A DNA stretch of 4,098 nt from a virus (lineage: Duplodnaviria; Heunggongvirae; Uroviricota; Caudoviricetes). The position numbers are program-made. This document shows positions 1 to 3,000 of the stretch, piece after piece. Positions within the stretch are counted from its first letter, which is position 1. Each line of letters starts with the position of its first letter. Location of the stretch: IMG/VR virus record IMGVR_UViG_2690316345_000002, one strand, 5' to 3'.

Positions 1-3000
1 CCCTCAAAAACGTAAGCCTCTACGCCACGAAGTAATCCTAAGTTATTGATTTTTTCGAAAACCACCATTGGGGGATTTCGGATCACACCTCGAACCGCCA
101 GTCGTTCAATGGATTGTTTCACCTTGTCATGACGACTTCCCACCAACTCAGCGATTTCAATGCTTGTCATTTTGATGACGTTGCTATTTATCAGCTCGTT
201 CATTGTCATGTCCTCTCATATTGAAAATTCAGCAATAAAAAACCCAGCCGAAGCTGGGTTTGTTAAGTTGTCAATTGTCAGTAGCGATGCAGTGAAGGCG
301 GCAATTCTTTGTTCTTAAGCCTTTCCCATGCCAGAAGGTTCGTTGGTCCGTCTGGCTCATTGATATCAACATCTCGTGTGTGATTAATTAAAACGCCCCT
401 CGCCCTCCCGATGATATACGAGAACTCATAGCCGTAGTCGTGGCATATGCCGGAATAGCCAGACTGAATCAGTTTTAATGCGGGATACAACTCACGGAAC
501 AATGCCTGTGAGCGGTTGGCATAATCCCACAGCCATACAAGGCTGTCTGTTTCTTTTGCGGAAAGCCCGTTGAGCTTCTTCTCTTGTTTGCCAGTATTTT
601 TCTCGCACTGGCTGAAATAGCAGTCTTCCAGTTTTTCGAACACATCCCACGCCTGATCAGTTTCGAGCATTTTTGCGTGACGGGCTGCGCCTCGTTCTGT
701 CCAGAGGATGAGGGAGCGGGCTTTCGGGGAAATTTGTAACCCTCTTAAAGATGGTTGCAAATTTTGTGAGTTACTTAAAGTAACCCGCAAAATTTTCAAC
801 TCATCACCAACAACCTTGAAAAAGTGTTTACCCTCAACAAAACGCTCGGAATTACGGGTGTAATTTACTTTGATGTTGTTGATCTCGGTACAGTAAAGCT
901 GTGCCAGTAACTCGGTAGTGATAACGGGAATTTGGTTGTGTGTAATTGGGGAAAGAGTTTCGACAGAAATCTGAGTGGCCATAACGATAACTCCGTACAT
1001 TTGGACATTATCGCCACCGTCAGGTGCTAATCATCATGGTGGCGAACTGTGCGGGGTTAGCACTACCGGGTACGGAAACCGGCGAGCCTTTCGGCTCCCC
1101 CACACAGCCCGCCATAAATCGCGAATGTGACTGTGCAAACGATATGAAAAAAGACGCGGGCGCGTCTCATATCGCTCCGTAAACATCCGGGGTGCTAATC
1201 CCGACGCCAGATTTTGCTGGCGCGTGAGGAATATAGCCCCGAATAAATCATCGCGTCAATCACCTTGTTTTCCTCGCACGATGTCTTAGCCACCGGATAT
1301 CCCACAGATGAGCCGTGTAGTTGAAGGTTTTTACGTCAGATTCTTTTGGGATTGGCTTGCGTTTATTTCTGGAGCGTTTCGTTGGAAGGTATTTGCAGTT
1401 TTCGCAGATGATGTCGGTGATACTTCTTCGCTGTCGCCTCATGCCGCCCTTCTGACGCCCTGCCCGATCGCCATCAATGCCGCTTTGGATACGGTAGTAA
1501 ACATCCGTCGAGGACTGATGAACGGTCGCCAAATCAGCAGCATGGAACCTTTGCTGTTTCCCTTCTTCTCCAGCCCTGTCGATGGTTCGATAAAATTAAT
1601 CCGTCCATCAGTGATAATGCGAACTTCGTCAACACTCTCCAGAGCCTTGCTGAACCATCCGACTGACATATCCTCTGGCACAAGCATCACTACCGTCTGT
1701 CGCTGTTGTATGCACTGCTCAGCGGCTTTTTCCACCCACGGCCTGATATTGCTGTACGGTGGGTTATTCCAGATTGCACCGTGGCTTACCCACTCAGAAT
1801 TGAGCGCGTCGTCGACCTCAGTTAGCCAGTGAGCGCACAGAGCGTTTTTGTCGCTCGCAGCTGAATCCAGCCAGAATCCAAACTCAATATCCAGTGCATC
1901 AAAAAGCCAAAGCGGCGTTTGCCAGCAGTCCTTGTCGTGTGCTGGTGTATTTGATTTGATAGTCATGCAGCCCTACCTTTTCGTTGTGACCATTCATACT
2001 CTCGCCGGGAGTCATCACTCCACCGCACGTTGCGCTCTGAGCCGAACCAGAACATGATTTCGATAAGCTCAGTCATGTTGGCCTTTCGCATTTTGCTGGT
2101 ACGCACGCCAAGCATGACAACGCCACCGTCGATACCAGGCGCACTTCTTTGCTCCAGTTTTTTGGTCTTAAGCCACAGGGCAGTGAACAGGTCTTTCCAG
2201 TCTTCCGGCGCCAGCCGTTGACCATGCCATAGCACCTGACGCGAAACATCGTTCAGCATCGGCCACATGCGGTCATTCTGCGCTTTGCTGCGCTTGGGTT
2301 CTTTAACGTGGACTTCGTGGGGTGACTTGTCGTCGATGGGTAGTGAGAGAATGGCGTCTATGGCGTTATTTCTGATTGCTTCGTTGCGAAGCAGAAAGGT
2401 TTGCTTCATCTCCTGCTCTCCGGTTCCATTTTTCAGCCGCCGCAGCAACTGATGGTGCCCATGCCCCCCCTGGCTTCACAGAGGTCACATTCTGCATAGC
2501 CCCACACATCAATATTTATTCCGGCCTCAACCCACAGACGAGCATTACCGCCGCAAAACGGACATTCTTTTAGCTTTGGCTGGGTTAATGATAGGTCGCT
2601 CATGCTCACTCCTTCACTTAAAATCCAGACTCCGGATAATTCTGTTGCGCTGAAACTCATTGTTGAGTTTGAACAACCGTCGAAGAACACGGTCACGCGG
2701 ATAGCGTCGTGCGGCAGGTGAATGCTCATACAACTCATCAAGCGGCAAACTGAACGATGAACGATACCGATACCAACGCACCAACTCTTCACGAAAATTA
2801 GCCCTGACAAGCTCAGCTATCGTACTCATTTCTTAAAACCTCCTCAAACGCATTCTGACGCATTTTTCATTCTCGCTGCTTATCGGCTGCCTTGCACGTG
2901 CTTACCTCACCACAGAGCGATTGTGATGCCTTAAAAGCGATTTATTGAAGTGATATTTGCTTAATCGAAATTCTTTTCTTTGATTCCTGCGGCCCTGATG

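Follow-up and report, generated by a model that had tools for sequence, protein, structure and literature searches.

Does a short, arginine-rich open reading frame (ORF) lying directly ahead of a Lar-like zinc-ribbon gene encode a protein of its own, and if so, is that protein a companion of Lar or something separate? The question is raised by a stretch of 4,098 nucleotides (the window) from a member of the Caudoviricetes, IMG/VR record IMGVR_UViG_2690316345_000002. The window corresponds to the nin region of a 933W-like Shiga toxin (Stx) phage: its genes are all on the minus strand and lie where, in this Stx-converting lambdoid phage, the replication module meets the nin module, and a 901-base stretch (2400-3300) has 98-99% identity with phages JLK-2012, VT1-Sakai and 933W. 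The analysis described here shows that positions 2614-2829 on the minus strand are a genuine, independently translated gene of 71 amino acids (aa), belonging to the DUF7301 (phrog_1785) family.

The ORF begins with an ATG at 2829, ends with a TGA at 2616-2614 and has 71 codons. The preliminary description of this DNA was exact in its coordinates and in its count of 16 lysine and arginine against 9 aspartate and glutamate residues, and left the strand unstated. The protein (R14 and K2; D3 and E6) has a calculated isoelectric point (pI) of 10.8 and no cysteine. Its Shine-Dalgarno sequence, GAGGAGG (2839-2845, minus strand), is found 9 nucleotides (nt) 5' of the ATG, and the block GGAGG(N)TTT(N)AGAAATG is retained in loci L018 and L003 despite a different upstream neighbour. 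At the other end, the junction (2604-2616, minus strand) consists of the TGA stop, a 10-nt spacer (AGGAGTGAGC) and the Lar Shine-Dalgarno sequence; the latter, AAGGAG, overlaps the DUF7301 stop codon, and the Lar-like ATG is at 2603. Both the GAGGAGG sequence and the stop 10 nt before the Lar-like start, as described previously, can thus be read in the DNA. Because stop and start are separated by only 10 nt, or overlap in relatives, the gene downstream of DUF7301 is probably translated by coupling, and the packing of DUF7301 and Lar is tight enough for the co-translation that had been proposed. An RNA element was also considered for the ORF region and rejected: Rfam gives no match within or adjoining the ORF, the 131-nt spacer upstream of it folds no better than shuffled sequences (z 0.29), and no promoter-like site is present on the coding strand.

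Length is weak evidence for coding, as the window has 11 ORFs of at least 71 aa, several of which are spurious overlaps (76-174 aa). Among diverged alleles, the proportions of synonymous (pS) and non-synonymous (pN) differences are 0.53 and 0.26 in the DUF7301 frame and 0.39/0.32 and 0.18/0.38 in the other frames, pS>pN being exclusive to DUF7301's own frame. Within the invariant core, YPRDRVLRRL, the changes are solely synonymous and in third positions, and R50 is encoded by all four CGN codons. The 71-aa ORF is intact in all 75 assessable loci selected via the downstream Lar gene; the loss or disruption of the frame beside retained flanking genes, named beforehand as the observation that would speak against it, was encountered in none of them.

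Existing annotations of the locus disagree. The RefSeq record of 933W (L001, NC_000924.1) omits DUF7301 and has an overlapping 119-aa coding sequence at 2538-2897, called 'Lar-like restriction alleviation protein', whose counterpart in the window is a spurious 125-aa 'long Lar' ORF with a TTG start (2433-2810, minus strand). In the record of phage Nil2 both the DUF7301 and the Lar-like genes are annotated, and the Prokaryotic Genome Annotation Pipeline (PGAP), gene callers and other records also favour a 71-aa gene plus a short Lar. The long Lar frame is interrupted by a TAA just 5' of the Lar ATG in L012, in L013 and in 36 of the 75 natural alleles, in which the substitution appears in DUF7301 as a conservative F70L. 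No synonymous excess and no purifying selection are seen in this frame, and the short Lar gene has a strong Shine-Dalgarno sequence and an ATG of its own. Four lines of evidence (the family matches, the substitution pattern, the stops in the long frame and the existence of homologues without Lar) settle the locus as a 71-aa gene followed by a short Lar. The phrog_599 profile, which has 262 positions, aligns to the window Lar at positions 64-111 only, and this suggests that extended Lar annotations have entered that family.

The family, which had not been recognised in the preliminary description, already has a name. The protein matches Pfam DUF7301 (PF23975) with 89.3 bits (cut-off 27, E value 1.8e-25), its residues 1-64 aligning to positions 1-64 of the 65-position profile, and it matches phrog_1785 over positions 1-70 of 71 (E value 1.8e-32). 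PGAP uses the product name 'DUF7301 family protein', and such proteins are present in 568 of 5,426 complete E. coli genomes, in at most four copies each. The element is thus already catalogued and is not a new one. Identity is 97-100% to proteins of 933W, VT1/VT2-Sakai, phi24B (vb_24B_15), Nil2 (ORF30) and hundreds of E. coli genomes, and homologues down to ~30% identity occur across the Enterobacterales. E. coli-type DUF7301, of which vb_24B_15 is the phi24B copy, is found in 183 phage records. When 1.84 billion representatives were searched exhaustively with a profile, only 45 clusters were returned (E<=0.001); the annotated collection has 148 DUF7301 clusters. The cluster sources are Escherichia, Salmonella, Serratia, Klebsiella, Kluyvera, Rosenbergiella, Rahnella and Ewingella, together with a large set on ~47-kb contigs. 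No paper on DUF7301, vb_24B_15 or the RRDRVL motif was found in the literature, and the motif is missing from the supplements of one phage accessory-gene screen.

Members of the family are basic proteins of ~65-90 aa, with a median net charge of +8, whose genes lie in the early or accessory regions of phages and prophages of the Enterobacterales, and the window protein fits this description. The family signature is M-S-T...L..A-D..E...R..R-Y..S-S-S-L-P..E....P....Y-R/P-R-D-R-V-L-x-R-L, followed by a variable C-terminal helix. Its positions are T3, L7, D11, S-S-L-P (26-29), E32, P38, Y43, R45-D46-R/K47-V48-L49, R/K51 and L/I52, with R45 and D46 invariant; the window protein departs from it in having N11 for D11, a trait of its allele group, and F26 for S26, which is seen in the window only. 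The AlphaFold2 model (predicted local distance difference test score, 89.5) is a basic two-helix hairpin with helices at 3-25, 30-35 and 45-70, in which two long antiparallel helices would be joined by a conserved Arg/Lys-rich linker (S-S-L-P...E...P...Y-x-R-D-R-V-L-x-R-L). DUF7301 is the sole Pfam match and there is no NCBIfam match, so that neither a helix-turn-helix (HTH), a ribbon-helix-helix (RHH) nor any other regulatory domain is detected. A siphovirus homologue gave a single weak match to the PADLOC defence profiles (Cas11b, E value 0.0079), which was treated as noise.

In E. coli, DUF7301 is a mosaic: each of two N-terminal variants occurs with both of two C-terminal variants, the conserved core being where they cross over. 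Three chimeras are joined at codon 43/44 of DUF7301, which is the 5' edge of this core. The first, P0025, is a natural deletion found on many contigs, in which codon 43 is joined to sequence just upstream of ybcO. The second, P0108, is DUF7301 joined to the start of an unrelated gene with a PF22479 domain, and the third, P0031, is a Cro/YdaS-like N-terminus with the C-terminal half of DUF7301. From the chimeras and the four-way mosaic, the data suggest that the core is a recurrent recombination point. As a natural deletion allele, P0025 shows that DUF7301 itself is dispensable. A Rosetta-stone reading of these three proteins and of the fusion P0098, described below, was rejected: none of the four is a fusion of functional domains, and they are explained by read-through on loss of a stop, by chimeric deletions and by a natural deletion of the nin type.

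What lies downstream of DUF7301 varies. The organism-wide neighbourhood statistics rest on sampled contigs encoding DUF7301; a search of genome contigs for related loci with the close alignment confirmed none. Of the 183 phage records with E. coli-type DUF7301, 51 are Stx2a-converting, and none of these 51 is among the 119 records that have the E. coli-type Lar. In Stx2_356, the only one of the 51 examined, and in phi345, the same 71-aa allele is followed by an unrelated 60-aa protein of phrog_9493. The identical junction, TGA-AGGAGTGAGC-ATGAGCGA, precedes this non-Lar gene in the P27-like Stx2a phages L151 and L152, where the phrog_9493 cassette gene is at 1727-1909. A third cassette is seen in P0098, in which a 68-aa phrog_18758 protein is fused to the C-terminus by stop-loss. 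A 75-aa form of DUF7301 overlaps ninB (phrog_72) directly, and DUF7301 is also adjacent to NinB in Klebsiella aerogenes, L070 and Ewingella. Prophages of Serratia, Salmonella, Kluyvera, Rosenbergiella, Klebsiella aerogenes and Ewingella have DUF7301 without Lar. The slot 3' of DUF7301, with its shared junction AAGGAGTGAGCATGAGCGA, may therefore be occupied by Lar, phrog_9493, phrog_18758 or nothing (NinB being next), and it behaves as an exchangeable cassette slot in lambdoid phages. Directly downstream, Lar is met more often than any other gene, and the pairing is facultative overall.

The second setting in which DUF7301 is common is a group of ~45-48 kb siphoviruses, comprising Deseoctovirus, Shuimuvirus and their relatives (148 phage records; examples are Shigella DS8, Salmonella IME207 and Seszw, Klebsiella 6991 and E. 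coli Bas80). Their DUF7301 proteins are ~36-45% identical to the window protein and diverge to ~42% within the group. DUF7301 is directly followed by Lar in all 32 siphovirus loci examined, the genes overlapping by 4 nt (ATGA) or 20 nt. Next after Lar come a Ren-like winged-helix protein (phrog_1687, more weakly phrog_142), a 58-aa protein and, usually, phrog_343. The set of Ren, phrog_343, DUF7301 and Lar is thus common to the window and to these unrelated siphoviruses, in a different order. The siphovirus Lar proteins (L024-L064) have a conserved N-terminus (M..MMNDxGLLECPFCG) and a conserved C-terminus (WNTRNGHLYTADD..), and their zinc-ribbon core is hypervariable even among phages in which DUF7301 is 90-100% identical. 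This suggests that siphovirus Lar may be under diversifying selection or subject to cassette shuffling.

In the window itself, the Lar-like gene (2433-2603, minus strand) is a decayed one. It is a 56-aa, +1 frameshift allele ending in ...CEARGGMGTISCCGG* and is without the conserved C-terminal WNRR segment, for which reason its scores fall below threshold: 39.3 for TIGR03655 (cut-off 39.6) and 25.9 for Pfam Lar (cut-off 28.6), the match being to the N-terminal part of the profile only. phi24B, Nil2 and L012 have the intact allele of 78 aa, WNRR motif included. The frameshift is caused by a G7 homopolymer at 2464-2470 on the minus strand (C7 on the plus strand). G7 is present in the window and in 933W, G6 in L012-17 and phi24B, and GGGTGG in Nil2; among IMG/VR contigs, 5 have G7 versus 73 with the intact G6. 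The L013 Lar has a nonsense codon, and DUF7301 is intact in L013, in the window and in 933W. None of the Lar profiles of Pfam, NCBIfam and PHROGs matches the 71-aa protein; given this result and the absence of cysteine, the idea that DUF7301 is a Lar homologue was rejected.

It is tentatively proposed that DUF7301 is an autonomous early accessory protein of a host-takeover or counter-defence gene set, with a basic patch for binding nucleic acid or an acidic protein; this is put forward as a working interpretation, at somewhat less than even confidence. DUF7301 would be neither the N-terminus of Lar nor an obligate Lar subunit. Autonomy is favoured because the same allele and junction precede phrog_9493, and because of the stop-loss fusion to phrog_18758; the overlap of the 75-aa form with NinB, the six other genera without Lar and the intact DUF7301 beside decayed Lar genes point the same way. 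The gene would mark the 5' edge of the exchangeable accessory-gene slot. It would belong to a set (Ren-like protein, acidic phrog_343 protein, Lar and often a DNA methyltransferase) common to two unrelated phage types, since Ren-like, phrog_343, DUF7301 and Lar genes occur together in the window and in the siphoviruses; a DNA methyltransferase is near DUF7301 in many lambdoid contexts. Its accessory character is suggested by P0025, dispensability being typical of accessory genes. In the predicted structure, the conserved basic patch lies at the linker and the beginning of helix 3; early in infection it may bind either nucleic acid or the acidic surface of a protein.

Several points weigh against this proposal. 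Homology and structure searches had both been recommended in the preliminary description; the former placed the protein in DUF7301/phrog_1785, and the latter were unproductive, fold searches with the DUF7301 model yielding no informative structural relative and a sequence-profile search of the PDB returning nothing. The helical hairpin is without a recognised nucleic-acid-binding motif, and the window protein has no match among the PADLOC defence profiles. The counter-defence idea rests on neighbours only, of which phrog_343 and the siphovirus Ren-like protein are themselves uncharacterised. Finally, the invariant pairing with Lar in siphoviruses could reflect a Lar-specific role.

That last point leads to the most interesting alternative, the two-component idea of the preliminary description, in which DUF7301 would be a dedicated Lar partner. 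It would serve as a co-factor in the alleviation of type I restriction, or else as a protein antidote to, or regulator of, a RalR-type DNase, with translational coupling fixing the ratio of the two proteins. Such a partnership is judged unlikely. It is sustained by the siphovirus data, as the overlap of DUF7301 and Lar persists in 32 of 32 loci despite the divergence of DUF7301 (to ~42% within the group and ~36% against the window). It is also consistent with the lambdoid data from the Lar side: the 78 IMG/VR loci picked by exact match in E. coli-type Lar all have DUF7301 10 nt upstream, and in all 75 that could be assessed the gene is intact. The charges of the two proteins are opposite (pI 10.8 for DUF7301 and 4.4 for the truncated Lar), and the Lar protein of the Rac prophage (RalR) is a non-specific toxic DNase that requires an antitoxin (PMC4041452). 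The exchange of cassettes, the lineages without Lar and the decay of Lar weaken this model, however. Unrelated genes stand in for Lar after one and the same DUF7301 allele, many lineages have DUF7301 but lack any Lar in the surrounding ~3-4 kb, and the 183 phage records with E. coli-type DUF7301 compare with 119 that have this type of Lar. DUF7301 is preserved where Lar has decayed, in the window and in L013. Nor do the two proteins co-vary, since the siphovirus Lar core is hypervariable where DUF7301 is 90-100% identical. To our knowledge, members of the Lar family such as Rac Lar also occur without DUF7301. The co-conservation with the zinc-ribbon gene that the preliminary description proposed to examine thus holds for the siphoviruses and fails where phrog_9493 or NinB takes the place of Lar, in the Lar-less genera and beside decayed Lar. 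A related model would make DUF7301 and the Lar zinc ribbon an ancient two-gene module of lambdoid phages and siphoviruses, in which the hairpin controls a RalR-like DNase or aids anti-type-I restriction, and the Lar-less lineages keep a second, Lar-independent activity; it, too, seems improbable.

A second alternative is that DUF7301 is an accessory of DNA metabolism, a small basic DNA or single-stranded DNA binder that works with NinB/Orf or with the preceding replication module. This possibility is rather doubtful. DUF7301 precedes, and often overlaps, NinB (phrog_72) in the 75-aa form, Klebsiella aerogenes, L070 and Ewingella; in the window only one cassette stands between DUF7301 and ninB. 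The gene is usually 3' of the replication genes P/DnaB, its neighbours include a homologue of DNA polymerase III theta in Kluyvera and a dATP/dGTP pyrophosphohydrolase in Salmonella, and the strong positive charge of the family would suit such a function. The adjacency may nevertheless reflect mere lambdoid gene order at the replication/nin boundary. The siphovirus, Serratia, Salmonella and Rosenbergiella contexts yielded no NinB close to DUF7301. A known DNA-binding fold was not detected in the PDB profile and fold searches.

A role as a small regulator of the early operon, at the transcriptional or post-transcriptional level and for example by binding DNA or RNA through an Arg-rich helix, is less plausible and is considered very unlikely. 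The protein is indeed Arg-rich and predicted to form helices, and its gene is part of an early operon, just 3' of a terminator-like site in the window and near a divergent intergenic region in siphoviruses. However, Pfam and NCBIfam reveal no HTH, RHH or other regulatory domain, the gene is dispensable in P0025 and variable, moron-like, in its position, and its surroundings show neither a conserved RNA structure nor a repeated operator-like site. Hardly credible is the reading in which there is no separate gene, the region being an N-terminal extension of a longer Lar-like protein or non-coding: the Lar frame does stay open over a long ORF in the window and in 933W, and the partial phrog_599 match indicates that some members of that family are likely annotated in extended form, but the stop codons and the substitution pattern have effectively refuted it already.

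DUF7301 is part of the rightward early operon, and its neighbouring genes are all on the minus strand. Upstream of DUF7301 are the C-terminus of replication protein P (3597-4055) and ren (3310-3600), which encodes a Ren-like exclusion protein with a winged helix (phrog_142, E value 8e-42) and is annotated likewise in 933W. A terminator-like hairpin (3261-3284, minus strand), with an 8-bp stem (6 GC) and a T-run, occupies the interval between ren and the acidic gene, the position of tR2; in the Nil2 record the tR2 terminator is annotated in the equivalent region. As this hairpin is upstream of DUF7301 and Lar, both genes probably depend on N antitermination. The acidic gene (2961-3239) has a GTG start and encodes a 92-aa protein of PF26207 (Phage_phiTE_015)/phrog_343 (phrog_343, E value 6e-30), for which a pI of ~4.4 was calculated on the 97-aa TTG-start ORF at 2961-3254. 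It is a frequent, facultative neighbour of DUF7301, and the two are found within ~1.5 kb of each other in E. coli Stx phages, Ewingella, L070 and siphoviruses. The L070 homologue of phrog_343 (1811-2215) has a precomputed match to the RNA polymerase alpha C-terminal domain (PF03118).

Downstream of Lar are ninB (1963-2409), encoding the Orf recombination mediator (Pfam NinB, E value 1.7e-48), a Dam-type methyltransferase gene (1439-1966) and a gene for an ORF6N/P22_AR_C antirepressor (278-1000), past which the gene order of the window ends with a Rha-like fragment. Strong Rfam matches are present 5' of the antirepressor gene (1035-1236, minus strand): C4 antisense RNA (78.8 bits, 1035-1119), isrK (74.4 bits, 1147-1223) and the c4 a1/b1 target (49.8 bits, 1184-1236). 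Together, these matches look like an antisense immunity element of the P1/P7 type that controls the antirepressor.

The practical consequence of these findings is that the locus is mis-annotated in RefSeq 933W and in the PHROG-derived 'Lar-like' annotations that copy it: a conserved gene is missed, and Lar is extended through it. As the constant coupled companion of Lar in ~150-200 siphovirus genomes, DUF7301 is a concrete candidate for a partner of this poorly understood protein. The slot 3' of DUF7301, near ren, dam and the acidic protein gene, is a compact place in which to seek counter-defence genes of Stx phages. What is added here is the resolution of the reading frame against the 933W RefSeq record, the facultative pairing with Lar in two phage types and the exchangeable slot. 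These results are unlikely to surprise phage specialists greatly, and amount to a modest lead rather than a discovery.

Comparison with known systems helps to place the family. With respect to Pfam PF23975 and phrog_1785, the window protein is simply a member, matched over its full length and with no difference. Lar/RalR of the Rac prophage and Ral of lambda are, like DUF7301, small early phage proteins in accessory positions, and Lar is coupled to DUF7301 in two unrelated phage groups. Lar is, however, a zinc ribbon (CxxC...CxxC, followed by a W-N-x-R helix), whereas DUF7301 is a cysteine-poor basic protein modelled as a helical hairpin, with no similarity to it in sequence or fold, and is not known to alleviate restriction. 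In type II toxin-antitoxin systems, likewise, the first gene is small and its stop overlaps or adjoins the start of the second, and the Rac homologue of Lar, RalR, is a toxic DNase. The antitoxin of RalR is a small RNA (type I). The usual charge pattern of type II pairs is reversed here, with the basic protein upstream and the acidic one downstream; none of the type II antitoxin domains (RHH, HTH, AbrB, Phd/YefM) is found in DUF7301, for which the model is all-helical, and in place of the obligate linkage of antitoxin to toxin, the gene downstream of DUF7301 is exchangeable or absent. Helical-hairpin nucleic-acid binders such as ColE1 Rop and proteins with an arginine-rich motif such as lambda N share with DUF7301 a size class (~60-70 aa), an alpha-hairpin or an Arg-rich helix, and an origin in phages or plasmids.

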